Assembly (NCBI GenBank): GCA_964187785.1
Contig: OZ076409.1
Location: forward strand, 3,784,001 to 3,848,000
DNA length: 64,000 nucleotides
Reading direction: 5' to 3'
DNA from: Amphiscolops sp. MND2022
Lineage: Eukaryota
The notes beneath the pieces are model-generated. The model did not search any database and was not told the origin of the DNA. It was given only the letters and a program-made list of their open reading frames with translations. This document shows, one piece after another, positions 11,160-60,052 of this stretch. Positions within the stretch are counted from its first letter, which is position 1, and each line of letters starts with the position of its first letter. Both the position numbers and the translations under genes were made by a program.

Positions 11160-11197
11160 AACAAGTAGATTCGCGTTCCGCAGCCGATGCGAGAGCG

Positions 11198-32390: not shown

Positions 32391-32938
32391 CCCTTGTTGA
32401 AACTGCTTGAACTTTTTGCATGTACTTTAATGTTGCCAGCAACTTTTATTATGATTTTCCAAAACTCTTACGGAAACTTTCATGCGAAATTTTGTCCCTG
32501 TTGTATTTAACTTTTATCAAGCTGCTTGAAAGATTCATCAAAGTTTTGGCGGCAATTTTAAACCTTGAAGTTTTGCAGGTTTCATTAAGCAGCAGTTATA
32601 ATTTTGAAAGCAAATAAGGCGCTATCAATTTACCGCTAAATCAATGCAAAATAACTTCAGTCGCATAATAAACTGCAAGTTAGCGTCATCTCTAGCGTGC
32701 TATTTGAGAAGCGGTGATCACATCAGATGAGTAGTTGAGAAAACAAAGTGTGTACACAAAGTGATCATGTCGGTAATCTAGTGTAATTTATTTTCAAATT
32801 TAATTACAATAGTGGAAAATGCAGTGTAATTGTACATGATTTACCAACCGAAGTTCACTGAATTTTCTAGGTTTTATAAAAAATTACCCTGCATGCATGC
32901 CTGCAGCATGTAAAAAGTTCCTGCAGCTTCAACTAGGG
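32391..32938. mobile_element. Non-autonomous DNA transposon (MITE) with CCC...GGG ends and 2-bp TSD (CMC/EnSpm-like)
   Basis: About 32-bp imperfect TIRs (cccttgttgaaactgc / gcagcttcaactaggg); GT duplicated; empty site atggtggtaag in the duplicate copy near 35840. Confidence 0.8.
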
Positions 32939-35064: not shown

Positions 35065-35637
35065 TTTTTAGTCGGCGCTTCATGAAGTGAAACGCGACTA
35101 TTATAGTGACTCTTTTTTTTTCTATCCACACGAACTGACCAAAATAGTTCTAAAAAAGTTCTACAAAATATTATTGCATCAAAATGCACTATTTGGTCTA
35201 GCGAACTGAACCAAAAAGGTTTTTCCTGTTTTTCCGCGTAACATACCATACCGGGCGAGACCAAAGACTCCCCCCTTTCATTTTTTTTCGGCACTGCGAG
35301 ACTTTTTTTTCGAAAAACAAAGTTTTCCCCAAAGGGTCCCCCCTGCATTTTTTTTGATGTTTTGCGACCGAATGGATGTTGAAAAACCACAAAGGGTCCC
35401 CCCTTTCAGTTTTTTTTCGGCATTGTGAGATTTTTCCCGAAAATGAAAATTTTTGTTTTCTTCAATTTTTTCATGTTTTGCGACAGAATGGATGTTGAAA
35501 AACCACAAAGGGTCCCCCCTTTCAGTTTTTCGGCATTGTGAGACTTTAGCGCGCCAGGGGCTCGCCCTAGCGAGCCCCGGTGCGCCACTCGGTCCATTTT
35601 TTTGAGTATGTAATTTTTTCGAAATTTTTTTTGGAAA
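35065..35637 (+). mobile_element. Helentron-type element, 3'-truncated at the duplication junction
   Basis: Starts tttttagtcggcgctt; matches the first part of 37960-38636. Confidence 0.65.
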
Positions 35638-37959: not shown

Positions 37960-38636
37960 TTTTTAGTCGGCGCTTCATGAAGTGAAACGCGACTATTATA
38001 GTGACTCTTTTTTTTTCTATCCACACGAACTGACCAAAATAGTTCTAAAAAAGTTCTACAAAATATTATTGCATCAAAATGCACTATTTGGTGTAGCGAA
38101 CTGAACCAAAAAGGTTTTTCCTGTTTTTCCGCGTAACATACCATACCGGGCGAGACCAAAGACTCCCCCCTTTCATTTTTTTTCGGCACTGCGAGACTTT
38201 TTTCTCGAAAAACAAAATTTTCCCCAAAGGGTCCCCCCTGCATTTTTTTGATGTTTTGCGACCGAATGGATATTGAAAAACCACAAAGGTCCCCCTTTCA
38301 GTTTTTTTCGGCATTGTCAGATTTTTCCCGAAAATAAAAATTTTTGTTTTCTTCAATTTTTTCATGTTTTGCGACAGAATGGATGTTGAAAAACCACAAA
38401 GGGTCCCCCCTTTCAGTTTTTTGGCATTGTTAGACTTTAGCGCGCCAGGGGCTCGCCCTAGCGAGCCCCGGTGCGCCACTCGGTCCATTTTTTTGAGTAT
38501 GTAATTTTTTCGAAAATTTTTTTTTCAAAAAATTTCGATTTTCGAGTACTGTAAAAGAGTACTTGACACCTGGAAGTCTTTTTGAGATTTTTGAGCCTTG
38601 GATATGGCGCCGACTTGGGCCCGTCCCGCCTTTTTT
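37960..38636 (+). mobile_element. Helentron-type non-autonomous element
   Basis: 5' tttttagtcggcgctt ... 3' ggcgccgacttgggcccgtcccgcctttt. Confidence 0.7.
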
Positions 38637-38659: not shown

Positions 38660-39853
38660 CCTCTATTGTCATTTATGAGTAAAGTGAGGTTCGAGCGATG
38701 TCATGAATTCTTCATGGCCATAATCTGAAACAGATCTTATCAAGAGGATCATGGTTTTCCTAATCCCCAATCAGCGTGAAAACATTTACAACTATTGACG
38801 AAGGTATTGCGATACAAGACTGGTTGACCAAAATTCTATCAGTGGGGTTTTTTAAGACTATCCCGTAATCGTTTACAAATTATCGCAAGATCTCAAATTC
38901 TTGAGAAACTGCAAACAACATCATTGTTTCTTCCTCAGCTGCTGATATTACCACCGTTGTCTGTAACTTAGAACGTTAATTAGAATAATAGTTCCTGCTT
39001 CTGAGTTTAAAAAGAAGCAAAAACATCTGGTGACTGCATGTTATCAAACCCTCTTAACTAATCAGCATCACTAGTCAACATTACATCAGTTTCCTTCAGT
39101 TTGTGGCATTTAAGTACCTCGAAAAGAGTTTTCATTATAACCAAGGTTTCCGGCCCGGATTTTGAACCTACTGCTCTGAGAGGAAAACTTCATCAGGACT
39201 TTGCGTTGTAATTAAATCAACTAATCTTTTCGCGAAAATAACAATTACTAAACTTCTTTTGTTCTCGAATGACTTCATTAGGAATGCACGACCCCTCGAA
39301 TTTTTGTTTTTCAGTAACAGGCGTTAAAAATCAATTGGCATCCTTCATTCGAAAACTTTCAAGTCCTTATTTGATGTAATTTTGATGGAAATATTCCAGA
39401 GTTGCTCTTTCATGTCTACTTCACATACCTAGAAGCTAATTCAAGTCTTCCGCGTGACTGATACAGAGTTTTTTGCAAGTCTTTTCTTTAACCCTTCGCA
39501 GACGTCAACGTCGTCGCTACATAAAACCAATTCATCTACCCAACTTGCGACGAAGTCCTTATGACCGTTTCGTTCACTAAAGATAAAACATGGTTCATTT
39601 GGGCTCGGCTTGAACTGAATGCTAGGCAAAAAGTCACTTTTGCTAATCAAAAAATGTAATGAACGAGTTGCCCACAGTTAGTTCCAATCCATGAAGTGAT
39701 TTTTTAAAGTCTACATACATAGTTTTACCAGTTTACATTTTTCTTGACTAATCCGGATGACTGATATAAAACAAATACTTCTGCGATGCCTGCTTTCAAG
39801 AAGGTAGTTGTAGTTTTCAAGTGTTCCAAATTCATTTCGTTTTGAACAGCCAA
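38660..39853 (-). pseudogene. Ancient Ty1/Copia RT-RNaseH remnant (continues at 54659-54800, interrupted by the Gypsy element)
   Basis: Broken frames: LAVQNEMNLEHL..TTFLKAGI, YVCRL, EPCFIF...FVASWVDELVL, SDAD; the far side reads PVKVLTVRVLLRLA. Confidence 0.7.
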
Positions 39854-41374
39854 TGTCGCGGCCACAGCGTTGCGATGGGTCCGGTGTGCACCAGTAAGAA
39901 AACAAACAACGCTTGTTAAAAACTTCCAAAACCCAAGGACTCATTTGCAAGTCATGTAGTTTGTTTGTTTTGTAAATATTTGTTGTAATCAGGGTCATTT
40001 AGTTGATTTATTTTGTAAAACTGATGTCTTAAAATGATTTGCCAAACCTTAAGAGGATTTAATGATGTTTTTAATTATTCCTGATGATCCTAATGCAGTG
40101 CTAATAGTTCATTTTAATTAAGCAGTACCAATTGTATACGACATTGTGCGTTTTGAGTGCTAATGAGTATGCGGTACTATGCGCATATGCATCTTTCTGA
40201 TTTTCACTATGCGTCACTATGCGGTTTGAACAGTGACATTTACTCGACACTATGCATCTTTCTAACTTTCATTATACGTCACTATGCGGTTTGAACAGTG
40301 ACATTTACTCGACACTATGCATTTTTCATTATACGTCATCCTGCGGTCTGAGGAACAATGAGTGCTCGGTACTATACGTTTTTCGATATGCTTGCTTTAA
40401 TATGAAGGATTAACTTTGCATTTCCATATACAGTAGTATAAGTCCATGATATATCATTGTTTAACACCTTTCTAGGGTATTATAAACCTCGTTATCATTT
40501 CTGAATGTCATGGAAGGTAACTCATGAGATATAAATAGGATGACGACATTCTGACGAAGTGCTATTATTAGTTTTTCCTAAGAATGATGCTTGTAAAATT
40601 GCGTGTCATCTTTTGTAATTTTGTACTTTCTTGGGGAAAAAAGAGCTAACACAACTGATATAACTTTCTTCAGAACCAGTTTGTTCTCTGATAACGATTA
40701 CAATCTTTGTGCTACATTTTGGGATCTTTGAACATTTCAAATTGATTTCCTTTGAATATTTGCCTTCAATTCAAATTCTTGACCCTGCAAAACAATCATT
40801 TTCTCTTGAGCGAAAATGGGCAATAAGAGAAGTAGAAGGTCTAGAAGACTAGAAACTCCTTCCCCTAGCAGAGAAGAAGGTGTTGAAACTCCAAACCCAG
40901 GTAATATGACTTTAACTAATTCCAACTTAGTTGACCAAGAAAACTTAGGTCCCAATATCTTGGAGAATCAAATAACTGAACCCAGCGTAATTAGCAATGA
41001 AATACAAGTTTGGACACAAGAAATGGAAAAGAGAAACAATGACAGAATAGAGAAAATGAGGGAGGAGATTGATAATAAATTCGATGCAATCTTAAGAGAA
41101 ATCAAAACTAGTAAAAATGCATCTACAATCACAAACCCAAGATCAGAATCTAATGAAACACAAAACAATCAGCCGTCGGGATCCAGAAATAGGTCTATAG
41201 GAGTTCGCGCATCAGAAAATGAAAACTCTGATTCTGAAAATGAAGATAATCATCCCATCAGAGCATCGAACATGCATGAATTAAGAGACCCAGCAAGACC
41301 CTTTTGCCAAAATAGATTTGAACTAGATGAAACATTAGTTTCAAATGAAGACTCTGAGGAGGAGGATTATCACA
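39854..41374 (+). repeat. 5' LTR (1521 bp)
   Basis: Direct repeat of 53133-54653; TGTCGC...TATCACA; TATA-like TATAAATA near 40530. Confidence 0.95.
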
Positions 41375-44300
41375 TGGTGACAGGAGCTAACCCAGACCTC
41401 AATATTCACCACGATTCACCTATTAAAAATCATGTCACTATCAAAACTTCTTGCAATGATCAAAAACAACCCCTTCTAAATGAAGACCTAGCTGAACACC
41501 TACAATTTGACAAAGAACGCAACTTGTCATACCTACCAATTTCAACATCCTTGACATTGAAGCGCAAACGACATATATACTACATTCCAATGGACTTCCA
41601 AAACCTCACACTTGATGGTCTTATTGACACAGGAGCTCTCACAAGTGCAATCTCCGAACAAGACCTCTATAAAATCAAATTGCTCGCAAACGATGCGATA
41701 AAAGAAACTGGTCCTCCACCAAACTTTCAAATTATGGTGGCAAATGGACAACTAGAAGTCCCCATTGGTACAATATTACTAGAGTTCGAAGTCGCAGACT
41801 TCATGTTAAAGGAAAACTTCATCATCATGAAAACTCTACCAAACCCGCTCATCGGATTGTGTTTCCTTCGCCGAAACAATGCAATTTTCGATGTCACACA
41901 AGGAATCTTAACCTTTCCTTACCTCTCAATGCAACTGAAACCCGATACCCAAACAGCAATACGGCAAGCAACACCATTGTTTGCAGAAAATACCTACACA
42001 CTCAGGCCAGGCGAAACACTCGCTATAGCAAGCAAAATGCCTCACCTGATGGACCATAATGCAACCGGAATAGTCACTCCATCACAACAATTTGAAAACC
42101 ACGATAGTATTTTTATTACAGCATCACTTAGCACAGTTAATAATAATGCTATCGGCTACCAGATCATCATTTTTTCAGAATTGCCATATACAATAACCAC
42201 TGACACCCATTTAGCGGATTTCAAAATTCTGACCCCAGAACAAATCAAACACATCCAACCAGTAGACCCAGCAGTACTATCGTTTATGATACAACATGAA
42301 GAAACCACCGAAGTCTACATCAACGAACTACTCAAAGTACCACAACCAAATTCTGAACAAGAATCGTACTGGTTTCCTACCCCAGACGACCCAGGCGATC
42401 CCGCAACATATACTCCAATACAACAACGTATATACAATGAACTTCTTGAGTTAAAAGAACTCGAAAAACTGAATCCACATGATAATGAAACATCCAGGAA
42501 AACATTCCTCTCAAATTTCGACTGGACAGATACAACACTTAGTTCAGAAGAACGACAAGAGATTGAAGAGATTCTGGTCGAATTCCACGACATTTTCGCC
42601 AGACATCGCTTTGATATCGGTATAAACCGCGAATTCAAAGTCAAATTAACACCCAACGACGACAGACCAGCTTACAACCAGAGTCTGCCAACTCCAATCA
42701 ACCTCAAAGATGACATCACAGTAGAACTTGCGCTTCTACACAAGTACGGTATAATCACAACTCTACCGTTTTCCAAATATGCAAGCCCGATTTTTGCACA
42801 ACGCAAACCAAACGGGCGCCTTAGACTCCTAGTTGACCTCCGGAAAATCAATAATCTTATCACTGAAGATTACGCCAATAATAACCACCCGGTAAGCACC
42901 CTATCTGATGCAGCCCAACACATGGCAGGAAAAAAGCTTTTCTGCAAACTGGATTGCTCCCAGGCTTACCACTGCCTCCAAATGGCCGACTACCAATCTA
43001 TCCAAATGCTCGCGTTTAACTTTGCAAGCAGAACATTTGCTTATCGACGCCTTGCCCAGGGTCTCAGTCGATCTCTCTCCGCATTTTCCAGCTTCATGAG
43101 AGAATACCTAGACAGAGCAATTAAAGCAGATCAATGTGCCCAATATGTCGATGATATCGGCATAGCAGCAAACGACACAAAACAATTGTGTATAAACATC
43201 AAAAAAACTGTTTTTGAATGCATCCGGAACGCCGGACTGAAACTCTCCATGTCGAAATGTCATTTCGGAGTCAAACAAGTCGACTTTTTGGGACGCACAA
43301 TCACACCAGATGGAGTTGCCCCTCAAGCCGACAAAGTGAAAGATTTTTTGGCAAAACTCAAATTCCCAAAATCAAAAAAGGCACTTCAAAGGTATATCGG
43401 ATTCTTGAATTATTACCGAAACTATATACCTCGCCTTTCAGAACGACTCACCCCGTTTTTCAAACTCCTCAAAGAAACCTCCAAATTTTATGTCCCTACA
43501 AACTTGGTCGAAGACTTTACAAACCTCAATCAACTTTTGGAAAATTCTTGCCAACTCGCGCTGAAACAACCCTTGAAAGACAAACAACTCATAGTCATGT
43601 CCGATGCAAGCTTCACAGCTGCAGGATATGCCATCATGATTGAAGACGATCCCAACCAGAAGCTTCAATCCAAACGAAAAACCTACGCACCCATTGCGTT
43701 TGGATCAAAAACGTTCAATCCAACACAAACGAAAATGTCAATTTATGCAAAAGAATTCCTCTCAATATATTTTGCATTCGTAGAGTTTGGACACCTCATG
43801 TGGGGGAGTACCTACCCTGTCATCGTGTTCACGGATAATCGGTCTGTAACCCGGTTTTTTCAAACGAAAATGATTCCTCCAGCGCTTTGGAATGCATGCG
43901 ATTATGTACTACAATACAATTTTGTAATCGCCCATGTAGCTGGATCGATGAACACAGCCGCCGATTTCTTATCTAGAACCGAAAGTAACCCAACCGAAAA
44001 GCTCGAAATGACAATTCGCAACGATATTCACACAAAAGCAATTGAAGTGAATATACAATCAACTGGAATTGTCGAAGAAGAACAAATTTACATCCTTCCT
44101 GATGAAGAAATCGATGAAAATCAACTATGGGAAGAAAAACAAAACACTCGCAATCAAGCACAAAACGAAACTCACAATGACCCAGAGAACGACGTCTCTG
44201 AATTACAGCAATTTCACAAACCCACATCCGGATTGATCTCCTGCTCCTCTGGACACTTCAAGGACAATGCGAGGAAACGCCTTGAACAGAACAATGACAT

Positions 44301-46050
44301 AGTCCTTCGAAACCTGAGAGCCAAAATAGAAGGCGAACCGTTTGATGAAAACGAATTAGCTTCCGATTTCAGATATCAACACTACTTACAAAACATAACA
44401 CGAATCGAGATTAAACACGAAGTTCTCACACGCAAATACTATACAGATACAGGAATGATCTCGCATTATCAAATCCTCTTACCAATCCAACTTCTTGAAG
44501 AACTACTTCAAGCCCTCCATGGACATAACTCAAACCATCCAGGAATTACCAAGATGATTCAAGAAACACGTCAAAAATATTACTACCCATGTATGGCCAA
44601 ATACATAAAGAAATGGGTCAGTAATTGTCAGATTTGTATACAAACAAAACGTATCAACAATGATCTCCTCAGAACCGAACTCCTTAATTGTCCCGAATGG
44701 GACCTTGGACCGGAAGACATCTTACAGATGGATATTTTGCCAAACCTCCCCCCAAGCGGAGGCTACGATCACATCATCACAGCAATAGATGTCTTCTCAA
44801 GGTATTTGTTTGCTTATCCTGTGACTCGAATTACCGCAACAGCAGTTTCAAAAGTCATAATGGATATCTTATGCAAACACACCTACCTTCCAACAACTAT
44901 AATCACGGATCTAGGCACTCAATTCAACGCACAAGTCACTCATGAAATTGCGGCAGTGCTTGGAATCGAAATGAAACATGCCACAATGAAACATGCACAA
45001 ACCATAGGACTCTTAGAAAGAACCCATGCCTCAGTTAAAACACACCTAAAAGCCGCCACAGGCGAATTCAGGAACAACTGGCACAAATATCTTCCTCTAG
45101 CAGTCCTTAATCATAACACAACATACCATGCATCACTCGGTTGTGAACCCTCACGAGTTTTCCATGGCCGCATACCACACAATATCCTTGACTACAAACT
45201 TGGATACAATCCAAATCCGAGGTATCAACCACAAACTGACATTGCAGAAGAAATTCAAAAGCGCATGAGAACACTTTTAGACCAAACCAAAAAGATAATC
45301 ATGCAATCTTACCTAAAATACAAGGCCTACTACGATAGAAAAGCAAAAGCAGCCCCGTTGGAGACAACAGATTACTGCTATATTCTTAATCCAAAAGCCG
45401 ATACACAAGCAACGAAAATACCATTCCGAGAATTCAGATGGTGTGGACCTTATAAAGTTGAAAAAGTGCTCCCTAACAATAACTACATTGTGAGGAGACT
45501 TGGCACAAATAAAACCCAACTACTACATCGGATTCGTTTGCGGAAATTCACACCGCAGGCCCCTTTAGCAGACATTTTTGTTCGCGAAACCGACTGGCAA
45601 AAAGATGATCAAATGACTATAGCAAATGATGATCTATATGCCCAATCATGGAACACGAATTTTGGAGCAAATCCATTTGATGACATTCCCTCAGATGCAA
45701 TACACAATACTGAGGATACCGAATATGTCCCAATTCAAATACCCGACAATAGCCGCCCACCCTCCCCAGTATCTTCAAAAAATAGCGGGGGGAGCCCAGT
45801 GGATCAGACCACTGAACCAGATCAAAATCACGGAAATCATGCTGATGAAATCCCACAACAATCAAATGATGATAATAATACCCAAAAAACCCGAAAAGAT
45901 GTAAATAACGCAACAAACAATGATAATCAAAAAACCCCAGAAAACTCCCAAAATACCCCATTGCAAGAAGAACCCATAAATACCCGTGGTGAAAAATACA
46001 ACCTACGTCCTAACCCCAACCCAAATTACTCTGACACTTATAGATACTAG
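40816..46050 (+). CDS. pol: Gypsy polyprotein (1744 aa): LTR-encoded N-terminus, protease, RT, RNase H, integrase with GPY/F motif
   Basis: LIDTGA, LVDLRKIN, KLDCSQAY, YVDD, MSDAS, FTDNRS, H..H..CQIC, MDIL/TDLGTQF/LERTH, WCGPYKV; no stops. Confidence 0.95.
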   Translation: MGNKRSRRSRRLETPSPSREEGVETPNPGNMTLTNSNLVDQENLGPNILENQITEPSVISNEIQVWTQEMEKRNNDRIEKMREEIDNKFDAILREIKTSKNASTITNPRSESNETQNNQPSGSRNRSIGVRASENENSDSENEDNHPIRASNMHELRDPARPFCQNRFELDETLVSNEDSEEEDYHMVTGANPDLNIHHDSPIKNHVTIKTSCNDQKQPLLNEDLAEHLQFDKERNLSYLPISTSLTLKRKRHIYYIPMDFQNLTLDGLIDTGALTSAISEQDLYKIKLLANDAIKETGPPPNFQIMVANGQLEVPIGTILLEFEVADFMLKENFIIMKTLPNPLIGLCFLRRNNAIFDVTQGILTFPYLSMQLKPDTQTAIRQATPLFAENTYTLRPGETLAIASKMPHLMDHNATGIVTPSQQFENHDSIFITASLSTVNNNAIGYQIIIFSELPYTITTDTHLADFKILTPEQIKHIQPVDPAVLSFMIQHEETTEVYINELLKVPQPNSEQESYWFPTPDDPGDPATYTPIQQRIYNELLELKELEKLNPHDNETSRKTFLSNFDWTDTTLSSEERQEIEEILVEFHDIFARHRFDIGINREFKVKLTPNDDRPAYNQSLPTPINLKDDITVELALLHKYGIITTLPFSKYASPIFAQRKPNGRLRLLVDLRKINNLITEDYANNNHPVSTLSDAAQHMAGKKLFCKLDCSQAYHCLQMADYQSIQMLAFNFASRTFAYRRLAQGLSRSLSAFSSFMREYLDRAIKADQCAQYVDDIGIAANDTKQLCINIKKTVFECIRNAGLKLSMSKCHFGVKQVDFLGRTITPDGVAPQADKVKDFLAKLKFPKSKKALQRYIGFLNYYRNYIPRLSERLTPFFKLLKETSKFYVPTNLVEDFTNLNQLLENSCQLALKQPLKDKQLIVMSDASFTAAGYAIMIEDDPNQKLQSKRKTYAPIAFGSKTFNPTQTKMSIYAKEFLSIYFAFVEFGHLMWGSTYPVIVFTDNRSVTRFFQTKMIPPALWNACDYVLQYNFVIAHVAGSMNTAADFLSRTESNPTEKLEMTIRNDIHTKAIEVNIQSTGIVEEEQIYILPDEEIDENQLWEEKQNTRNQAQNETHNDPENDVSELQQFHKPTSGLISCSSGHFKDNARKRLEQNNDIVLRNLRAKIEGEPFDENELASDFRYQHYLQNITRIEIKHEVLTRKYYTDTGMISHYQILLPIQLLEELLQALHGHNSNHPGITKMIQETRQKYYYPCMAKYIKKWVSNCQICIQTKRINNDLLRTELLNCPEWDLGPEDILQMDILPNLPPSGGYDHIITAIDVFSRYLFAYPVTRITATAVSKVIMDILCKHTYLPTTIITDLGTQFNAQVTHEIAAVLGIEMKHATMKHAQTIGLLERTHASVKTHLKAATGEFRNNWHKYLPLAVLNHNTTYHASLGCEPSRVFHGRIPHNILDYKLGYNPNPRYQPQTDIAEEIQKRMRTLLDQTKKIIMQSYLKYKAYYDRKAKAAPLETTDYCYILNPKADTQATKIPFREFRWCGPYKVEKVLPNNNYIVRRLGTNKTQLLHRIRLRKFTPQAPLADIFVRETDWQKDDQMTIANDDLYAQSWNTNFGANPFDDIPSDAIHNTEDTEYVPIQIPDNSRPPSPVSSKNSGGSPVDQTTEPDQNHGNHADEIPQQSNDDNNTQKTRKDVNNATNNDNQKTPENSQNTPLQEEPINTRGEKYNLRPNPNPNYSDTYRY

Positions 46051-46268: not shown

Positions 46269-49200
46269 TCAGTTTTTCTTGCTTTTCGGAGCTTTAGCAA
46301 CCACTCTCTTTGAAGTGCCCTCTTGGGTCGACTCTGAGCAACGACTAAGACTAACATTGAGTGTACCCAATGAAGGATCAGGGGATGGGGAACTATGTAC
46401 ACTGCTGCGGCGACTCACACTTGGAGTTGTTGAAGTAGAGGAAACGGTAGGTTTCTCAGCACGTAGCACAGCTTGTCGGTAACCAGTTTCCAATTTACCT
46501 TGGAGAGAAGTTTTCCGGGCATTGCTTCCCTTCAGGAAATTCCAAACCGAGAACTTTTTGTCCAACAACAAATCAGTCCCACGTCCCAACAGGCGAAAAG
46601 CACGGCTGATCGCTTTGGAATTTCGAAATAAGCTGGAGACGTGTGGCACAGTCTGATATGCTACCTGAAGACTAAACACACAAGATTCAAACGTATGTTT
46701 ATCCGACTCAAGATCTGGCATAGGTACCTTGAATGATGGCGGTATTTCCACGAATGGAACTAAACAAAGACACGAATGTTTGAATAGTCGCATCAACTCG
46801 GGTCTACACTGGATTTCATAATGTTCAACGACAAACTGAATCCAATCATCATGCTCTGGTACGTGGCTTGTCCTCAGCTTGGTTACGAAGGAACGATACT
46901 GGCTTATCTGCTTCACCTTGTCACTAGAAGAGAATAGTCCGGTAGAAACAAAATGTGAAGACAACTTTTCAATCGCATCAACATACACGTCTTCTGGGCT
47001 CTCGAGCATCACCGAGGAGTCAAAAGCAGAGAGTCCCCGCAACAACTTTGACTTTACAATCCCGTGACCCATCAACTGTTTGCAATAAGCCTTGCAGAAA
47101 CTCACTGACTGGTCAATAAATTTGCTTGGCCGAGGGAGTTTACTTGAATACACCAAACGGTGAAAATCCTCATTCAAGACGAAGTCGTCTGCTGTTTTAA
47201 ACGGCAAATTAGTTGAATCCAGGTCCAAATTAAGATAAGAATCCCATTCCGAGATATTTCCCAAAATGCTGTCAGGAAGAATGTTCTGCATCTGACTGTA
47301 GATAAAAACCGCAAATTGGTTGTATATGCGGAACCCTCCATCAAGTCGTTTCTGTATGTCCGAAAACGCCGAAGTATCTAAAACACACAAAAATCATCTA
47401 TTATAGAAACCACGCATGCCTTCATGAAGAAGAGAACTAATCACGCATAGTACACGCTTTTGATAAGCTTGATTAAACACATCATATAGCTCAATGTATA
47501 AACACCAGGGCTATACGGCTTTACGCGGTTCAGAGAACAATGAATACTCGACACTATGTTGAGTAGGAGATATTGACTATGCGGCACTATGCGGAATGTG
47601 TAGTAGTGACTATGCGTCACTATGCGGAATGTGTAGTAGTGACTATGCGTCACTATGCGGAATGTATAGTAGTGACTATGCGTCACTATGCGGAACGAGT
47701 AGTAGTGATTATACGTCACTATGCGGAATCAGCAATGCAGCTGGATTTGGGAGTTCTGAGCAAATACGATTGGTCATACGCAATTATGCGGATTGAGAAC
47801 TGATGATTACTCGTGATTATTCAGAAGAAAACAAAAAGCACGTGTCACTTATGATGAGTTAAATGAATGACAATCCTGATGTTCGAAGTTTTGGAATGAG
47901 ATGGTACTTATAGTACATTACTCCAAAAAGAGGAAAACAACGTAACGAAAGATGAAACCGCTGTTATAGTATAAAGATAAATTGACTAACAATGGTCAAG
48001 GACACATCTGATAATGAACAGACGGGCCAGATAAGCTGTGTCTAGACGAAAACACTCGTCCAGCGTATTGGGCTGAAAGGGAAAAGATTAAGAAATGGAT
48101 TCAGATTACAATGGAAGGAGCTGGGATAATAATACCTACCTCTCTCATATGGAATCGATAGATAGGAAGGCGTGCAACTTGTTCTAGGTGATCCTGCACG
48201 TGATTCCAGTTGTTGGAAAGCTGCTCAATCAAAGAAGAAGCTTCAGAAAGGGAATAGCTCAAGTTTGTCACACACTAAACAAAATAGGGGAAGATGTGCA
48301 AAACATCACAATGGAAAAGAAAAAAAACCAAAGTTGAAAACCTACTTTGTGCAGAAGGGGTAATTTCTCCAGCCAATCTCTGTCTAGCGCAGTCCGCAAT
48401 TTCATCAGTAAATAATCCAAGATAGAACGGAAATCGTGTCGTTCTATGACCTGAGCGGTAGGGCCTGCTAATGTTCGCTCAAATTCGTTCGGTCCAAATG
48501 GGTTGACAGTCGAAGGGGGCTTTAATCCGGGCAAACAAGACGATAGACAATCATTTAATTTGTCACTGAATCCAATGAGGGATACACAATTTGGGAATGT
48601 TTCGAACAGACTGAGAAAGGAAGCCACGAGAGAAAGGACTTTCCTTGGTAATAACATTCCCCGAGGGGCGCCCCCTATGCACACTCGATACAGCACATTC
48701 TCGGCCCAAAAGCAAAGAATAACGTATGTGGCAACAGGAGTATGTTGTATGGCCAATGAATAGTACCCCGAAGAAGATATAGACCGTACACAATAGTCCA
48801 TGAGTTCTCGGAACATGTAGACTATGATACCCTGCAAACAAAGAAAGTGTTAAGGTATTGGAAAATGGGGAAACCTTCAACTTATAGTGTAACTTCAAGG
48901 TAATTGAAACTTTTAACGAAGGAGAAAGAATATGGTTAAATCATTGTGTGTTAAAAAATTCACAAAGAAACTTACGAAAAGACGTTCATTGCTCCAGTTC
49001 TGATACGATAGCCGATCACTTGCTGTAAGTCTGACCAACTCGTCATACATTCCGGTCAAACTGGCGACGTTACCTCCGTGCCTTAACCCAAATTCCAGAA
49101 TGTTTATCTGCGAGAATATCTTCTCAGTTGGGGTTGTGGAAGCACTAAAATCGGGTACTGAATCTTGTCCTACTAGAGGTCGGTACGTATCCAATTGAGG

Positions 49201-50679
49201 AGGAATTGGGTAGGTGTCCTTCGCCTTCTTTTTGGCTTCCTGTAGTGAAATTCCAAGCAATTCATGTTCGTCTTTGTCGTAAAGGGGCATTCCTGGAATC
49301 TCCATGCGGATTCGGTGTTCCCTTACTAGGTGAGATTCGGACCTGTAATGGGATATCAGTTCCAGACTCCCACGACTCATCAACGATAATTCAACACGGC
49401 ACACCCTACACCACCACTTGTAAGGTGATAACTCTTGATCCAGTGGACATGTGGCAGAGAATTTCAAAACTGGGTGTCTTTTAAACATACTACCAGTTAA
49501 GGAGTATCTAGGGCGGCGTCGTTTCCCCCGTACTTCGGGGAGATTACGCTCTGAGTAAGTCGGCGCAGTTCTTGAAGTAGATTGGACAAGTGCTTCTTCT
49601 TGGCTTGATGTAGTCAATAAAGCAGATTGCGGTACATCATCCACCAAAGTAAGTGCCATAGTGTCTCCACATCCAGTCTCTTCTCCGGTGATGAAGGCTT
49701 GTGGGATCCTCCCAAAGAAATTGTGGAGAAATAAGACCTCCTGTCGAGTTACACTAACATTGGGGAACTCTGATCTGGGAATGTTACCCAAGCCTTCCGT
49801 GTCATGACCAATTGTTTGTCCTTGGTCATTAGCCGTGCTAAGAGAAACCGTGGTTTCGGGTATCTGCCCGGTAGTGAATCCTGTTGCACCATCCTCACTA
49901 GGAGTGACGTACTGTTCAAACTGAAGAGAATGTATTTGAGAATTACCCTGCGTGATGAAATCATCAAGTACCCCTTGAGGGAACGTCGTCATTGGCTCAT
50001 TCATAGCTTTCGTTGGGGTAACGTTCACAAATGGCGGCGAATTACTTCGTGAAGCTAAATCCCCTTTTTGACTTGGGTTACCCTGGGAAGTAACTCCAGG
50101 AGGCTCTGTGGATGTATGTCCACTCGGTGGCTCACCTGCTACTTCTTCATTGATCTGCAAAGTTGGGGTATTGGCGGTATCCACTTCCTCTGTAGCCTTA
50201 GAAGTCTGTGGAGTCACAACGTTCAAAGATGTGTAGACTTTGGCAGGAGAGTTGTTTGAAGTGGTTTGGACGTTTTGGGACGATCCTTGTTCAACTGAAA
50301 CAATTGATCTGTTGATTAACAAAAGAACAGATTTCACAAGCAATAACCGTTCTTAACTGCCTTGAACCGGACGCGGGGACAGGAAATAAAATTGGAACGG
50401 AAGTTGTTTAAAAATTGGAAGCGGAAACGTTTCAAAAAATTTGAACTTGACAAAGATAATAATCTTGTCATTTTCTTTTTGCTAGCCTGGCCAGCTTTGC
50501 AAATCAACCAAATTCAAAACAAATCAAAATGAAACAGAATTAAAACGAAATACGTTGAACTTACGGGATGACGTCTCAGGCGGCGGATCACTGTGCCAGA
50601 AGTCGTCACGTTGCAGAGGATCATAACTCTTCCGGGATCTTCTTTTCCCTCCGGGGCTTCCCTCTTGTGGTGAATCCAT
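46269..50679 (-). CDS. Six-exon antisense gene, about 1081 aa, zinc-finger / hAT-transposase-like protein
   Basis: Exons 50679-50565, 50294-48976, 48831-48346, 48274-48140, 48072-47991 and 47377-46269; all five introns GT..AG with matching phases (1,0,0,0,1); 3246 nt open; RGKRRRPR NLS-like motif and CRVC-x16-H-x5-H zinc finger. Confidence 0.85.
47572..47730 (+). repeat. 33-bp tandem repeat (about 5 copies) in intron 5 of the antisense gene
   Basis: gactatgcgtcactatgcggaatgtgtagtagt; TATGCG starts at 47578, 47611 and onward with period 33. Confidence 0.9.
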
Positions 50680-51120
50680 TCTTTTTTACAGAACCAGGAA
50701 GTAATTCAGGAAAATTCTGATGCAAGCTCAGGGTATTTGTTCCAGAAGTGAGCGAGGAGAAAATACAATAGATCGGAGTAAGGAAATTGAAAACAGATAA
50801 AAGGGGAACTAAAGATGAAGAATCCAAGATTTGGAAGATTGTGTTTAATATACTAGAACTTTAACTGAACAGACTAAATGAACTGGTAAGAAACTTGAAG
50901 ATTCAAAAGAAACAGTAAAAGGCGTGGCGTAACGTTAATGCAATAGACAAAGGCAAAAGAGCAAGTGAAACAATTGTGCGCAAATATGCGTAGAGAATAC
51001 TGCAATATGATTGGCTGTTCAAATGTCAATTACGTCTGCCAGCGTAATTGATTGACTCATCTGACTTCTGCCAACAACGTTGGTATACATATATGCTGAA
51101 TGGAATGAATTAGAAAGCGA

Positions 51121-51270
51121 GAGTATGCGGCAGTATGCGGATCTACCACCAACGACCACTCGACAATATGCGTATTACTGATTTAAATTATGCGGCAGTA
51201 TGCGGATCTACCAATGATGGATATACGGCAGTATGCGGATTGAGCATTGACGTATACTCGACATTTAGCG
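51121..51270 (+). promoter_or_regulatory. TATGCGGCAGTATGCGG motif cluster in the divergent intergenic region
   Basis: Three copies of the doublet motif plus actcgaca motifs, shared with the LTR (40168-40345) and intron arrays; regulatory role inferred. Confidence 0.5.
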
Positions 51271-52270: not shown

Positions 52271-53176
52271 ATGGGATCGAACATCATGACAGCTTTTGTG
52301 GGCTCTGCAACTGCTTCTTTGTTCCCCCCTTCAAACTACGTGGGACAACAAGAATCCATCAATACTGCAGGAACCCACATCGAAAGGGAAATCATGGAGT
52401 TGATAGAGGAGGGCCCTTCCTCTTCTCCAGCATCTCCGCTGTCTTTCATCGATTCAGAATTCGAAGGACCGGGTACTTCTCCAGTAGCAATTGCCGCAGA
52501 ACCCAGAGCACAGCTTAATAATTATGGTCGGCCAACTGCAGCAATACTGCCCACACCAAGGGTCCCATTGCAACCGCCAAATGAAACTGTTAGACCAGTG
52601 CCGACTTACCCTTCAAACTATGTGCAGAATGTCCCTAATTCTCACCAAGCACAGACAGTGGACACAAGCACAGAAGGGGCTACTAACGTACCAACATATG
52701 AACTACAAGGAATTTATCCGCAAGCCGCATTCATCCCAGAAGAATTAACACACCCTGTTACGAATGACATTACACCAGTAGTGATACATCTGCCCCCTAG
52801 AAACATGGGAATTGTCCCCGCCAACTTCAATGGTCAATTCCACCAAGTGGTCCAAGCTGGATTTCCATTCAACATTCTACATAGTACTAACATCCTTATG
52901 ATACCAGGCAATGAGAGACAAAATTTCAGATTGTTCCCAACAGTTATGCCAAACGTCTCCGGATATTGTGACTGGTGTGGCCGTACCTTTGATCAAGTCG
53001 CACTGGAAACATTGGGGGACTATCTTGGCGCTACCGCTTACAACGAGGAAACAGTCAGGGACCGTGGGGTGCGTTCTAGAGCCTTCATAGATGGTTTTGA
53101 AGCAGCGTTGTTTATCTTCAAAAATGCAGGACTGTCGCGGCCACAGCGTTGCGATGGGTCCGGTGTGCACCAGTAA
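52271..53176 (+). CDS. Accessory sense ORF (301 aa), P/T-rich, C-terminal CxxC; ends inside the 3' LTR
   Basis: Open frame crossing the PPT/LTR boundary at 53133; TATA-like CCCATATAAGGG near 51940. Confidence 0.7.
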   Translation: MGSNIMTAFVGSATASLFPPSNYVGQQESINTAGTHIEREIMELIEEGPSSSPASPLSFIDSEFEGPGTSPVAIAAEPRAQLNNYGRPTAAILPTPRVPLQPPNETVRPVPTYPSNYVQNVPNSHQAQTVDTSTEGATNVPTYELQGIYPQAAFIPEELTHPVTNDITPVVIHLPPRNMGIVPANFNGQFHQVVQAGFPFNILHSTNILMIPGNERQNFRLFPTVMPNVSGYCDWCGRTFDQVALETLGDYLGATAYNEETVRDRGVRSRAFIDGFEAALFIFKNAGLSRPQRCDGSGVHQ

Positions 53177-54653
53177 GAAAACAAACAACGCTTGTTAAAA
53201 ACTTCCAAAACCCAAGGACTCATTTGCAAGTCATGTAGTTTGTTTGTTTTGTAAATATTTGTTGTAATCAGGGTCATTTAGTTGATTTATTTTGTAAAAC
53301 TGATGTCTTAAAATGATTTGCCAAACCTTAAGAGGATTTAATGATGTTTTTAATTATTCCTGATGATCCTAATGCAGTGCTAATAGTTCATTTTAATTAA
53401 GCAGTACCAATTGTATACGACATTGTGCGTTTTGAGTGCTAATGAGTATGCGGTACTATGCGCATATGCATCTTTCTGATTTTCACTATGCGTCACTATG
53501 CGGTTTGAACAGTGACATTTACTCGACACTATGCATCTTTCTAACTTTCATTATACGTCACTATGCGGTTTGAACAGTGACATTTACTCGACACTATGCA
53601 TTTTTCATTATACGTCATCCTGCGGTCTGAGGAACAATGAGTGCTCGGTACTATACGTTTTTCGCTATGCTTGCTTTAATATGAAGGATTAACTTTGCAT
53701 TTCCATATACAGTAGTATAAGTCCATGATATATCATTGTTTAACACCTTTCTAGGGTATTATAAACCTCGTTATCTTTTCTGAATGTCATGGAAGGTAAC
53801 TCATGAGATATAAATAGGATGACGACATTCTGACGAAGTGCTATTATTAGTTTTTCCTAAGAATGATGCTTGTAAAATTGCGTGTCATCTTTTGTAATTT
53901 TGTACTTTCTTGGGGAAAAAAGAGCTAACACAACTGATATATCTTTCTTCAGAACCAGTTTGTTCTCTGATAACGATTACAATCTTTGTGCTACATTTTG
54001 GGATCTTTGAACATTTCAAATTGATTTCCTTTGAATATTTGCCTTCAATTCAAATTCTTGACCCTGCAAAACAATCATTTTCTCTTGAGCGAAAATGGGC
54101 AATAAGAGAAGTAGAAGGTCTAGAAGACTAGAAACTCCTTCCCCTAGCAGAGAAGAAGGTGTTGAAACTCCAAACCCAGGTAATATGACTTTAACTAATT
54201 CTAACTTAGTTGACCAAGAAAACTTAGGTCCCAATATCTTGGAGAATCAAATAACTGAACCCAGCGTAATTAGCAATGAAATACAAGTTTGGACACAAGA
54301 AATGGAAAAGAGAAACAATGACAGAATAGAGAAAATGAGGGAGGAGATTGATAATAAATTCGATGCAATCTTAAGAGAAATCAAAACTAGTAAAAATGCA
54401 TCTACAATCACAAACCCAAGATCAGAATCTAATGAAACACAAAACAATCAGCCGTCGGGATCCAGAAATAGGTCTATAGGAGTTCGCGCATCAGAAAATG
54501 AAAACTCTGATTCTGAAAATGAAGATAATCATCCCATCAGAGCATCGAACATGCATGAATTAAGAGACCCAGCAAGACCCTTTTGCCAAAATAGATTTGA
54601 ACTAGATGAAACATTAGTTTCAAATGAAGACTCTGAGGAGGAGGATTATCACA
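53133..54653 (+). repeat. 3' LTR (1521 bp)
   Basis: Direct repeat of the 5' LTR, followed by TSD GCCAA. Confidence 0.95.
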
Positions 54654-55019
54654 GCCAATCTCAGCAAAACGCGAACTGTTAGCACTTTCACGGGCCGACT
54701 ATGCGTTTGAACACCGCCAACTTATTACCCTTTTGAAATCTGTTGATCTGTATCTTGCTTTGTGCTTTTAATTTCCCCTCTTCACTTCCGCCGAATCACT
54801 GAAGTTGAAACGTACTGAAATAGTAAAAACTCTACGTTCAGACAACTCAGTAATTGCTTGCTAACAAACCCGAAATATGTTGATTTCTTGAAAGGTTTTG
54901 AGTGAAGTAGGACAAAAATGTTGATGCTATCAAAACAAAACCTTGTTGCTTTTTTATTTTTCATACATGTCGAATTTTGATACAAGATGAGGTCGAGTTC
55001 TCCTCACAAGATAGTGTCC

Positions 55020-55219
55020 NNNNNNNNNNNNNNNNNNNNNNNNNNNNNNNNNNNNNNNNNNNNNNNNNNNNNNNNNNNNNNNNNNNNNNNNNNNNNNNNN
55101 NNNNNNNNNNNNNNNNNNNNNNNNNNNNNNNNNNNNNNNNNNNNNNNNNNNNNNNNNNNNNNNNNNNNNNNNNNNNNNNNNNNNNNNNNNNNNNNNNNNN
55201 NNNNNNNNNNNNNNNNNNN
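55020..55219. other. Assembly gap (200 N)
   Basis: Run of N. Confidence 1.
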
Positions 55220-55368: not shown

Positions 55369-55803
55369 AACAAGCCGAGAACGGCCCAAGTCGTCGCCAT
55401 ATCTATGGCTCACAATTTTTGAAATTCGGGAAAAAATAGACAATGCTATACGAGAAATGGAAACGTTATATCTGTACTTTGAAACGTTACATTGCAACTT
55501 TGAAAACGATATATCCGAACATTGAAAACGTTACATCCGAATTTTGAAAACGTTGTTTCCGAACTTTGACAAAGTTATATCCTAACTTTGAAAACGTTTT
55601 ATCCGAACTTCGAAAACGTTACATCCGAACTTCAACTTTGAACACGTTAGATCCGACTTTTGAAACGTTATATTCGAACTAAACTATATCGGCTAAAAAG
55701 TTGAACAAATGAGCAAAAAAGTGGACCATTCAGAGCGAAGTGAAAAAAACTACCCACTGTAATAGCCGGACTTTTTCCCTAATGGAAGAGGCACCAACTA
55801 AAA
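55369..55803 (-). mobile_element. Helentron-type element with internal ~21-bp tandem repeats
   Basis: aacaagccgagaacggcccaagtcgtcgcc ... ggcaccaactaaaa; internal ttgaaaacgttacatccgaac repeats at about 55455-55680. Confidence 0.65.
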
Positions 55804-57637
55804 CCTTTGGTTGCCTTTTAAACTGCGTGTTTCCGCTGCAAAGAAGTTTCGCTAAAAACCCGTTTTAACAATTGCTGCAAATGCACATTTTATAATGACG
55901 CAAAAAAGAGAAATTATCAACAGAACCGCGCTGCGAAGTTTTCGTGCTCCACGAAAGAAATTTGAAAACCAAAAACCACAATGCTGGCAAGATTCGTCTT
56001 GGTGCAGAATTGGTGCTCTGAAGTTGATACATAGAGCAATAGCTTCAACTTGTGTTGCGGTGTGAGTTTGCGTGTTTCGTTTCTAGCTCATGGGACAATT
56101 TTAGTGTTCAAGAAATATGAAGGCTCAACAAATGTAAAAACGAGATCTGACAGCAAAAAACTGACAGTTCCACTGAATAATAGTTAGGTTGCAGTGGATT
56201 GAAAAGATGATATCTAAGTACCAGGGAGTTTGGTAACGTCTTACTTCAGTAGACAAACAACGGTTTATGGTGGTGATGGGGAAACGTTATCAAAAATTTC
56301 GATCCAAATTTTGACGTGGCATTTGGCATGTAATGATTTCGGTGTTTTCGTGTTTTTTGAGAGCGCAAAATGTCAAGAGTAGACCAGAACAAATCGAACG
56401 CCGACAATAGGAACTGTATAGCTGAAAAACGTTGAAGAATCTCCCCCATCAGGTTAGACTAATGTTACCTGAGTCTTATAATGAGACTTTTTTCATGATT
56501 GTCTTCGTTTTCTATCTAGAGCCCTAGTTTTTAGCTATACGGTCTGTCGTTATGCATGTTTTTCAGAATTTTTTCGCTACTATAGCGTTTTTAGAGGTTC
56601 GTCACCCGGAAAAGGAAATTTCTTTTTGTTCTTGGCCCAGTTATTTTGGCCCATTAAAGCGCTGATCCTGAAAATCTCAGCAAGGTGAACTCACTTCAAC
56701 GATTAAGACCGGTCGGAGAGTTTTCAGCTGAAGTGGTTCATATTTCCTGAAGTCACCCTAAGGAGGTATTATGAACCTGTTGACGAATTAAGACCGATTC
56801 TGGGCGGGGATCCCAAAACTCATAGGGTGCCTCCTCGCGATTTGCGTGTTGGGCTATACAATACTGCTTGTGTCGGATTGTTAACTAAAACCGAAGCTGC
56901 AGAACCTACAAACACGGAGTTTCTTGTTGATACGTTTGGCTGACGTTTTTCACAACCAACGAATTGACATGTAGGCACTTCGATTAGAAACTTCCACTTT
57001 CATACACATTTATTTTCATTATATTCACGTTTATATAATTTATGAACATTTTACTTTGTTTCTGAAAGATTTTTAGTTTTCCAGTAGCTTTAACTATTTG
57101 TTGAGAATAGCTCCACTACAACTCAATTAAACCCGTAGGTACCATGCACGAGACAAGAACTGGCTGAGTATCTACATAAATTTTTAATAACTCCGAAGAA
57201 GAGACGAATCAACTTAATCGAAGGCGGTGGGGGTAAGTGTGACAAGGAAATCACGATCTTTACATTTTTGCTAATTTTCCCTCTTTCAAGGTTTGTCTCG
57301 GTACTCTTGGACTGTTTGAAGTTCTCTTTTCGCTGATGAAAAGAAGCAGGTTGAACTTTAATTACTATACATCAAATAAATAAGTCGAGTGATAGACACA
57401 AATACAATTTCACATCCACGAATAATAGAATGAATAATATGATAACATCGATAATAACGGAGAATATTACTGAGTATATTAGGAGGCATATTAGGAGGCA
57501 TATAACACAAGAGAACAGTATACAAGAATTTCAGCAAGGTTTTTTTTTGTATCCGTAAGGATGGGGGTGATATCGAAGATATCGGAAGAATCAACTCGCC
57601 GCAAAATCTCTATCGGTCTTGGAGTGAAAACAACAAT

Positions 57638-57839
57638 CCGTGTTTTATCAGCCCACTTAGGCTTAAACCGTGTATTATCAGCCCACTTAGGCTCAACCGT
57701 GTATTATCAGCCCACTTAGACTCAACCGTGTATTATCAGCCCACTTAGGCTCAACCGTGTATTATCAGCCCACTTAGGCTCAACCGTGTATTATCAGCCC
57801 ACTTAGGCTCAACCGTGTATTATCAGCCCACTTAGGCTC
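57638..57839. repeat. 29-bp minisatellite, 7 copies
   Basis: ccgtgtattatcagcccacttaggctcaa repeated head to tail without spacers. Confidence 0.95.
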
Positions 57840-60052
57840 TTTTACATGTAATACGATAGACCAGCAGTCCACCCTACTCCCGGGTCGAAATCCGTACTAG
57901 CGAAGAGCGGGGTAGCAACAAATCAGGCAACTTCAGGTTGTTAGGCTGAAGGCACGGGCTAACCGGCCAGACGAAGTAAATCTGCAATTTCGATAGTCCG
58001 GCGTCTGATGCGGGATGCTATCGGACGCAAAGCAGCAAACCGTTCCCTAGATTTCAACTCACTTTGTGTGTCTCTTAATTGACACACACTTCGGCCTAAG
58101 TTACTTTTTCGGCAGTTTAGTCATATCATTATTCATAGTTTATCATCTTTCCTTTTTCGGGTTCTGACAAAGTGTTGAGCAATACAGTTTTTTCCTACTT
58201 CGGTACTGAAAGTTCATTAGAAGTACATTTTCTCAGCACGAGTTGGTCCTAGTTCCACCTCCTTGTCAATCATGACTGATGGTTTTACTTCGTTTTCAAT
58301 AGAATTTAAGGGGTGGTGCTACTGACTCAGTTTTTCCCACTTTTGTAAGCACGACTTGAACTTCGGCTTATTGATTGACATTTGCACTTTTTGCCAGGTC
58401 TCTTTTTCCCACGCGGTTCCTGACAACTCTCTCCAGCTAAATCTGGCTGAATGAAATACTTTTCTACAATTTACAATGACCTAAAAGGCGATTTTAATTC
58501 ATATCTAAAAAAAGTCGATTTTCGTGTTACAACTTCTAAGGTCAAAAACTAGGTATTCCGATCACAGGGGGCTAAAACCAAGTACATCATTTGGAAGAAC
58601 AATTTAAGGGCTAAAAAAGCTTACGCCATGGTTTTTTTTCTATTTCAACTCCTTCACGGTGAAAAACGCCTTTGAAATAAAGTAGTCAAAAATCACATAT
58701 TGACATTTGCAAATTTCTCAACTTGGAGGGCTCGTACTCATTCAATTTGAAAGGTACAGCGTAGGGGTTTATATACATCGCTAGCCCAAGTCTAAGGAGT
58801 ATTTTCCACCTTAGATGAGGTCTCTAGCTTGTTTCAACAAAATTTGATAGCACTTTTACTGAAAGTAGTCATTTTCCCGATTTTTATGTCTAGACTTTCA
58901 ACTTTGGAGGCCAATATCTCAAAACCAAGGCAATTTTCGGAAAAACGCTCCTGCTAAACGCTGTGCGCCTGAGTCTTGTGTGTCTACCCTGAAAGTTTCA
59001 GCTCGTTATTGCCCAAAACGTGCGGGGGGGAGTTAGCATTTTGGTAGGTCGACATCCCTATCGGCAGAAAGAAATCACAACTTTAAATTCTTGGGGGTTC
59101 TTCGCTAGCGCGCCACAGCACTCTATTTTTTATCTATTCATTCTTCCACTTCAATTCTCAAATACGCTGTGAAGGGGGCGGCTTTTGTGCGCTTACTCGT
59201 TGAGTACTAAGCGATAACATGCGAAAAACAGCTAATTTGGCCATTTTAGGGCTGTTTTTAACGTTTGCTGGCTCAGTTCTCAAAAACTACTGAATATTAT
59301 TTGTTTTCCAATTGACACAAGTTAGGGCATTAATTTATCTTTAATTTGAGCCATATCCGAACATTTTCTGACAACTGTAGCGATCACAGGAAATTTTTAA
59401 AGGAAACTCAATTTTGGAAAATCGTCAAAGATTTATACGCACTTATTTTCAAAGCTTCTCCCCGATATGTTCTCGTCATTGCACGGGACTCATATTCTCA
59501 ACTTAAGCTTTCCCTTGAATGGGCTTTCGAATGCTGAAAACCGTTTGTTGCTATCTTTTTTCATCTTCGAGAAATTGGGTTTTGATTTTTAATTTCTATT
59601 AAGAGGGGGGATTAATTCAAAGTTTGCGGCGGCCGTTTCCTTATTAGCTACGCGTACTGCCATTCACATCGCGTTCTAATTTTCATTCCTTTCGCTTTCT
59701 GACACGCTTAGGTGAGTTGTATTTTATGCTGTTCACGCACACAGCGGAGTTTTCACTCTCTCTTACCCTCAAACACATGTATTAACATAGTAATTTGACT
59801 AAATCTCTATTCACAGTCAACGATTACTTTAGGTTCAATTTTTGTGGGAATACGTTGGTTTAAAGTTCTTAAATGTCTACTCAACACGTAGTCAGGTCAA
59901 ACAGGATCATTTCGGTGGTTTATTTTTTCTTGTATTAGCAATAGTTGCCGAGAATATCGATGTCAAAATTTCTTTATGATTAGAATTTTCATACATAGTT
60001 CTGAGTGGTGGCGGCCGTATTACTGCATTAATACGTTGCGCGGTCGCTTCAT

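Follow-up and report, generated by a model that had tools for sequence, protein, structure and literature searches.

The stretch of DNA analysed here, referred to as the window, comprises 64,000 nucleotides (nt) of the Amphiscolops sp. MND2022 genome (GCA_964187785.1, contig OZ076409.1, positions 3,784,001 to 3,848,000 of the forward strand), and all coordinates are those of the window. A long terminal repeat (LTR) retrotransposon was found in the window, and a six-exon gene lies on its minus strand, antisense to the element's own coding sequence. When joined through five GT..AG introns, the six exons give a frame of 3246 nt encoding 1081 amino acids (aa), with the sole stop codon at its end, and the encoded protein begins MDSPQEGSPGGKRRSRKSYDPLQRDDFW. 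The gene model thereby reproduces that of an earlier note on this DNA, in which six exons and five canonical introns had been joined into one 3246-nt frame. The parts of the gene are as follows.

46269..50679, minus strand: antisense six-exon gene, coding sequence of 3246 nt, 1081 aa
50565..50679, minus strand: exon 1, 115 nt, holding the ATG
50295..50564, minus strand: intron 1, 270 nt
48976..50294, minus strand: exon 2, 1319 nt, encoding a variable N-terminal region followed by a C-x2-C-x17-H-x4-H finger (residues about 334-360)
48832-48975, minus strand: intron 2, 144 nt
48346..48831, minus strand: exon 3, 486 nt, encoding a domain of predicted RNase H-like fold
48275-48345, minus strand: intron 3, 71 nt
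48140..48274, minus strand: exon 4, 135 nt
48073-48139, minus strand: intron 4, 67 nt
47991..48072, minus strand: exon 5, 82 nt
47378..47990, minus strand: intron 5, 613 nt, containing a 33-bp tandem array
46269..47377, minus strand: exon 6, 1109 nt, encoding a C-terminal domain predicted to be all-helical and a disordered tail

Introns 1 to 5 start, in order, with GTAAGT, GTAAGT, GTAGGT, GTAGGT, and GTTAGT, and end with CAG, CAG, TAG, CAG, and TAG. Three minus-strand open reading frames (ORFs) in a mechanically made list (46269-47390, 48268-48837, and 48913-50343) correspond to exons 6, 3, and 2, respectively, while exons 1, 4, and 5 were missed because they are too short. The lengths of introns 3, 4, and 5 are not divisible by three, and the frame is therefore open only when spliced.

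The earlier note had placed the gene inside a retrotransposon, which was borne out by a pair of LTRs, a target-site duplication (TSD), and a sense pol.

39849..39853, and again 54654-54658, no strand: TSD GCCAA, flanking the LTR pair
39854..41374, plus strand: 5' LTR, 1521 bp, TG...CA
40816..46050, plus strand: sense ORF encoding 1744 aa, in which the gag N-terminus is joined in frame to pol
52271..53176, plus strand: third ORF (ORF3), 301 aa, proline-rich, terminating 44 nt inside the 3' LTR
53133..54653, plus strand: 3' LTR, 1521 bp, with the same termini in three other copies

The LTRs of the window copy start with TG, end with CA, and are 99.74% identical across 1521 nt. Pfam matches in the 1744-aa ORF corresponded to protease (residues 261-353, a match that falls below Pfam's cut-off), reverse transcriptase (663-829; RVT_1, expect value (E) of 3.4e-21), RNase H (899-1031; RT_RNaseH, 5.7e-14), and integrase (1223-1389; Integrase_H2C2, 1.9e-14, and rve, 5e-10), which is the domain order of Ty3/gypsy elements. 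The carrier is thus a Ty3/gypsy-type LTR retrotransposon. Its sense ORF begins 963 nt into the 1521-bp LTR, and a sequence resembling a primer-binding site (TGG...) follows the 5' LTR within the coding frame. With this site and the LTR end inside the coding frame, 559 nt of coding sequence recur in the 3' LTR (ORF 54095-54682). The antisense gene is located between pol and the sense ORF3, and it is convergent with pol, with 218 nt between them. ORF3 had at least 131 scored matches in the genome (48-100% identity), most of which were open, and its Pfam search returned no family.

In the 1.07 Gb of genome searched, the gene region was found in at least 20 additional copies at 95-99.6% identity, and the antisense gene was present in all of these near copies (20/20). 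Three other copies with the same LTR termini were flanked by perfect 5-bp TSDs (AAACT, AAACG, and ATTGA), so that distinct perfect 5-bp TSDs were found in 4/4 copies checked, the window copy included. Since each of the four has its own TSD, the element has integrated repeatedly with the introns in place, and the gene is inherited together with it. The earlier note had argued that the antisense orientation preserves the introns. The four copies with their own TSDs and intact introns agree with that prediction, while the argument itself is deduced from the workings of splicing and reverse transcription.

The three sibling copies are 16.14-16.17 kb long, compared with 14.8 kb for the window copy, which is without 1.32 kb immediately downstream of the 5' LTR (breakpoint near 41392, between 41375 and 41392, as mapped against the C2 sibling copy). 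All three sibling copies have the absent segment (L047:67-1388), and in a sibling copy it matched zf-CCHC (4.8e-6) and, weakly, Ty3_capsid and Retrotrans_gag. No Pfam family was found in 40816-41700 of the window copy, where the gag capsid and zinc knuckle present in the sibling copy are missing. In the sibling copy, gag, which starts within the LTR, and a pol of 1639 aa overlap in different frames. Within its family, the window copy has been shortened internally, with most of gag gone. In a diverged copy (L031+L026, G000:C2:8734900-8745066), about 800 pol residues are duplicated, with matches to residues 512-1418 and then to 616-1694.

The exon model was projected onto the 20 near copies, and the whole 3246-nt frame was kept in 13/20. 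The seven others comprised four with one internal stop, two with a one-base length change, and one with about 106 extra bases. Donors were GT at 99/100 sites and acceptors AG at 100/100. The lone non-GT donor was donor 3 of an open-frame copy (L015), and the frame and all splice sites were kept together in 12/20. Variable exon sites among the near copies were distributed over the three codon positions as 77/67/149.

A stronger test of selection was provided by six diverged loci of the same genome. Exon nucleotide identity at these loci was 0.66-0.79, and that of introns 2-5 was 0.61-0.68, where the floor of the aligner on shuffled sequence is 0.60-0.61. Exon sizes were unchanged in the six loci, and the peptides encoded by exons 3, 4, and 5 aligned over their full length, apart from a locus in which exon 4 stops one residue early and another in which a frameshift divides exon 3. 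Introns 3, 4, and 5 were 71-72, 69-73, and 561-638 nt long, respectively, and exon 1 showed 60-72% aa identity in two of the loci. The introns started with GT in 21/22 cases and ended with AG in 19/22, and two of the four exceptions fell at extrapolated boundaries. Conservation of splice sites and frame, which the earlier note had put forward as a check, was thus found in near copies and diverged loci alike, and on this comparison the gene model reflects more than chance.

In the comparisons with the diverged loci, the proportion of nonsynonymous differences (pN) in the antisense gene was 0.09-0.13, against 0.62-0.86 for synonymous differences (pS), and the ratio of the corresponding substitution rates (dN/dS) was 0.08-0.10 where dS was computable. 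The corresponding values of pol in the same pairs were 0.056-0.094 (pN) and 0.51-0.63 (pS). The antisense gene and pol have diverged together. The 3' end of pol was convergent to the antisense gene in 5/5 diverged loci having that flank, and pol aa identity was 81-91% where the frame was intact, with 66% for the last part of the L027 pol. The antisense protein is under selection, and the claim of the earlier note that the gene is real and selected gained support from the frame, exon sizes, and splice sites kept both near and far and from strong purifying selection.

When the genome was searched at the protein level with exon 6, 6804 first-look candidates emerged, and 111 of them were scored (62-100% identity; 96/111 stop-free). 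An ORF3 match was located within 12 kb of at least 47 of the 111 scored matches, and all of these exon 6/ORF3 pairs (47/47) shared the same layout, with ORF3 on the opposite strand, 4.3-6.3 kb upstream. Since both sets of matches are scored samples of longer lists, 47 is a lower bound.

These results bear on the possibility that a host gene was transduced once and is carried as a passenger without benefit to the element. Position, exons, and frame are kept in families with saturated synonymous sites at a dN/dS of about 0.1, and the stop-free state of 96/111 exon-6 matches extends over the whole range of 62-100% identity; both observations speak against a passenger. Capture of genes by LTR retrotransposons is documented in PMC7264820, and the antisense protein is unrelated to gag, pol, and env, two points in favour of a passenger; the passengers described in that source occur in one or few copies. 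No copy of the gene outside the element came up, without a systematic search having been made for one. Overall, we regard a passenger as very unlikely.

The convergent arrangement of the gene and pol, only 218 nt apart, would also suit an element in which the antisense RNA, by way of double-stranded RNA or small RNAs, is the functional product that controls the element, and the reading frame is incidental. Non-coding antisense transcripts of retrotransposons, such as that of micropia, are described in PMC7264820. The excess of variable third positions (77/67/149), the dN/dS of about 0.1, and the existence of homologues down to 20-25% identity argue that the protein is selected, so that an RNA function with an incidental frame appears extremely improbable; an RNA role may nevertheless exist alongside that of the protein.

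Some observations do count against a functional, intron-bearing gene. Comparison of exon and intron divergence, a check suggested by the earlier note, had a divided outcome: in the diverged loci exons are kept and introns 2-5 lie at the alignment floor, whereas in the near copies exon diversity (2.05%) and intron diversity (2.21%) are about equal, a measure that indicates little recent selection. In addition, none of the signals AATAAA, ATTAAA, AGTAAA, and TATAAA was found on the minus strand in the approximately 570 nt past the stop codon of the antisense gene, and its transcription and splicing are predicted from the sequence. Weighing these against the conservation described above, we consider it highly probable that the antisense gene is genuine, contains introns, is under selection, and serves as an accessory gene of the element.

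Homologues were also found, exon by exon, among ORFs from public assemblies (208 for exon 6, 126 for exon 2, and 123 for exon 3). All of them were unnamed and nearly all came from ENA, and those of exon 6 reached down to 20-25% protein identity. One of these ORFs (P0182) spans junction 2 with a 47-residue insert precisely at residue 478/479, and another (P0074) has inserts precisely at junctions 4 and 5; a third (P0111, 25% identity) is colinear across those junctions without inserts. Because the inserts in these foreign ORFs fall exactly at the junctions, the intron positions predate the families of this genome. Searches of exon 6 against longer proteins gave no named homologue, the 10 matches of a cluster look-up carried no names, and no relative was confirmed in a metagenome scan with P0002.

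In the protein, the first 200 or so residues are fast-evolving (48-49% identity, versus 73-82% further along), and the N-terminal part is probably disordered. In the C-x2-C-x17-H-x4-H finger, which has a W upstream, the W, C, C, and H columns are near-invariant. The spacing of the finger and its upstream W would be compatible with the BED pattern. The exon-3 and exon-6 domains were modelled separately. The exon-3 model, with predicted local distance difference test scores (pLDDT) above 90, has the order strand-strand-strand-helix-strand-helix-strand, which is RNase H-like. Its best matches in Foldseek were to Hermes transposase (8sjd_D, E 3.1e-4; 4d1q_G, E 4.8e-4), chains of which made up 9 of the top 10 rows; integrase cores of retroviruses and Argonaute came next. 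The exon-6 model is all-helical (pLDDT 75), and in VIA-align the best of 48,161 chains was again Hermes (8edg_A, residues 368-609, Z 5.4). In the ESM Atlas, exon 6 matched Dimer_Tnp_hAT clusters at 0.90-0.91. An assignment of exon 3 to UCH, for which ESM Atlas fragments scored 0.82-0.86 with few shared features, was rejected.

Much of the evidence, on the other hand, does not favour a relationship to hAT transposases. The Hermes matches of the exon-3 model had TM-scores of 0.14-0.20 and root-mean-square deviations of 13-15 A, and in VIA-align this model matched generic RNase H-like folds (Z 5.3-7.8), among which Hermes residues 136-265 ranked 12th (Z 5.8), level with others of these folds. The VIA-align scores for Hermes (Z 5.4-5.8) lie below the tool's caution line of 8, and the features shared in the ESM Atlas (134-145 of 256) fall in the weak range of that tool. 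Pfam searches of the three ORFs and their relatives, at E limits from 0.01 to 5, detected no zf-BED, hAT, or other family, and searches with PDB profiles gave no match. An hhalign comparison of the exon-6 family with two genuine hAT ORFs of this genome gave a probability of 0.2%. Likewise, the hAT dimerisation domain PF05699 had no match in 26 exon-6 family members (E up to 1), zf-BED had no Pfam match in 41 relatives of the finger region (E up to 5), and Foldseek found no match for the exon-6 model (E up to 0.001). The site expected to hold the first catalytic Asp was occupied by Gln in 37/50 relatives, Asp in 2, and Glu in 4, and an acidic residue followed strand 4 in 41/50; both positions were mapped by topology and not by residue-level structural alignment.

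The link to Hermes has weight because two domains modelled separately both have Hermes as their best structural match (in Foldseek for the core and in VIA-align for the helical domain) and because the order is colinear (Hermes residues 136-265 and 368-609). The zinc finger, RNase H-like core, all-helical domain, and C-terminal helices would also follow one another as in hAT proteins. Unlike Hermes and other hAT transposons, the gene shows no sequence or profile similarity to them, no inverted repeats, and Gln at the inferred Asp site, and its carrier is a retroelement and not a cut-and-paste transposon. The protein is accordingly described as transposase-like in its predicted fold and is not filed as a member of hAT. 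As for origin, the models lead us to lean, by a little, towards descent from a hAT-like transposase.

With Hermes as the top structural match for two domains and many genuine hAT elements in the genome, the gene might also belong to a hAT-like DNA transposon that is nested in the retrotransposon and still independently mobile. Such a transposon would be expected to have terminal inverted repeats and an 8-bp target duplication, and no such repeats bracket the gene: the best pair around it (46064-46082/53043-53061) is 19 nt long with 79% complementarity and is one of 31 in 7.3 kb. An independently mobile element would also be at odds with the gene having the same position with respect to pol and ORF3 at every locus checked, with a pS of the same order as that of pol, at or near saturation, and with the Gln found in 37/50 relatives where the first catalytic Asp is expected, although the mapping of that site is inferred. 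We therefore judge a mobile nested transposon to be highly improbable, and retain the reading of the gene as a part of the retrotransposon.

Besides the gene, the element contains a repeated bipartite motif, TATGCG-N-CA-S-TATGCGG. With two mismatches allowed, 14 matches were found in the window, where 0 are expected by chance, and all of them were on the plus strand and within the element.

40168-40289, plus strand: three bipartite motifs, 5' LTR
47574-47729: 33-bp tandem array of 4.7 copies, intron 5
47578-47726, plus strand: five bipartite motifs, intron 5, within the 33-bp array
51008..51059, minus strand: conserved upstream block, TGAGTCA and GCCAATCA, aligned with two diverged loci
51124..51238, plus strand: three bipartite motifs, 445-560 nt upstream of the antisense ATG
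53447-53568, plus strand: three bipartite motifs, 3' LTR

In 6/6 diverged loci, intron 5 retains two or three occurrences of the motif's core 8-mer, although this intron is otherwise at the alignment floor. Intron 1 showed 81% identity to the diverged families, above every exon at the nucleotide level, and it contains a 29-nt perfect block (50387-50359) and a 23-bp tandem repeat (50388-50446). The block at 51059-51008 is a candidate promoter element, judging from its sequence; we take TGAGTCA and GCCAATCA to be AP-1-like and CCAAT-box consensus sequences, respectively.

Elsewhere in the window, a BEL/Pao-type retrotransposon was identified on the plus strand at 8070-14475 (DUF1759, Peptidase_A17, RVT_1, integrase, and DUF5641); to our knowledge, BEL/Pao elements are restricted to Metazoa, and its presence indicates an animal host. 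The integrase ORF of another retroelement (Integrase_H2C2 and rve) is located on the minus strand at 62434-63543. A tandem duplication of about 2.9 kb occupies 32184-38523 (repeat-pair spacing 2891-2904, 89-100% identical), and each unit contains a minus-strand ORF of 200-214 aa with no Pfam family. Just past the Ty3/gypsy element, there is an assembly gap of 200 N (55020-55219), near which 22-bp and 29-bp tandem arrays were found (55483-55632 and 57637-57868).

These features can be combined into the following account of the antisense gene. Its transcription would presumably be driven by a promoter of its own, internal to the element and lying in the conserved stretch ahead of the ATG. Its five introns, being antisense in the genomic RNA, would not be spliced there and would be copied into each new insertion. 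The 1081-aa product would consist of a disordered N-terminus, a CCHH finger, an RNase H-like domain, and a helical C-terminal domain, in the order seen in hAT-type DDE transposases, and we infer that it binds nucleic acid. An old transposase-like gene may thus have been taken over by the element and may now serve as a nucleic-acid-binding factor in its life cycle. This factor might act in transcriptional control or targeting, possibly at the bipartite repeats in the LTRs, the region upstream of the gene, and intron 5. A regulator or targeting role of this kind is conjectural, and we put it forward only tentatively; that the link between motif and protein is itself a conjecture speaks against it. 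A still bolder version, which we think unlikely to hold in full, is that an animal retrotransposon superfamily of very high abundance has made a hAT-like transposase, its active site altered, into a permanent antisense gene with introns, whose product recognises the element's TATGCGG repeats in the LTRs and two internal clusters and thereby controls sense and antisense transcription or guides element DNA. If true, the element would be a stable chimera of retroelement and DNA transposon with a self-recognition system.

The layout itself has precedents. In the plant elements Grande (gene23, maize), RIRE2 (rice), and Retand (Silene), additional antisense ORFs, some of them with a TRP28 domain, have been described in the interval from pol to the 3' LTR. 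For such ORFs in plants and fungi a regulatory role, thought of as DNA-binding in the plant cases, is suspected, with the function given as unknown (PMC7264820, PMC11963269, PMC8365987). The gene described here resembles the plant ORFs in its position between pol and the 3' LTR and its orientation antisense to gag-pol (aORF-3R in the sense of PMC7264820), and also in the tandem repeat arrays of the same region (PMC7264820, PMC11963269). As in that class, it occurs in most family copies (20/20 near copies, 5/5 diverged loci with the pol flank, and 47/47 pairs). It differs from the plant ORFs in its animal host, its five introns, and the further sense ORF after the gene; introns go unmentioned in the main text of PMC7264820 and PMC11963269. 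Unlike the TRP28 proteins of Retand, it had no match to Transposase_28 (PF04195) in any exon at E limits from 0.01 to 5.

The gene brtn of Boty-like Gypsy elements in Botrytis cinerea (Zhao et al. 2011, as cited in PMC7264820 and PMC8365987) is likewise described as an antisense gene that a Ty3/gypsy element carries between its pol and 3' LTR; its host is a fungus. The present gene encodes a protein of about 1081 aa with three recognisable parts. Captured ORF3s of varied kinds are described for rotifer LTR elements, where they are in sense orientation (PMC5408684). In contrast to the deltaretroviral gene HBZ of human T-cell leukaemia virus type 1 (mentioned in PMC7264820 and PMC11963269), the candidate promoter region of the present gene is internal, and the two proteins are unrelated. 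HBZ starts in the 3' LTR and encodes a small basic leucine zipper protein. What the two have in common is a minus-strand gene in a retroelement, with HBZ having its own promoter and encoding a nuclear regulator. A search of the openly accessible literature, judged by titles, abstracts, and passages of selected papers, found no LTR retrotransposon of an animal that carries an antisense gene with introns. The layout is known, and what is new here is the host kingdom, the protein with a transposase-like predicted fold, the five conserved introns, the repeated motif, and the very high abundance.

Several consequences follow for the study of such elements. Genes of this kind will escape gene predictors or be masked as repeats, and the homologues found here carried no names. 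Retrotransposition reporters use an antisense-intron design, of which the present gene is a natural counterpart. It is the first antisense accessory gene of this type known to us for which a recognisable architecture can be reported, namely a zinc finger together with a predicted RNase H-like, transposase-like fold. Since candidate binding sites are present in the same element, the function of an antisense accessory gene becomes testable by ordinary binding and expression experiments. The finding adds an animal lineage to the plant and fungal accessory genes on the reverse strand of retrotransposons, with many families and thousands of first-look candidates in one genome.

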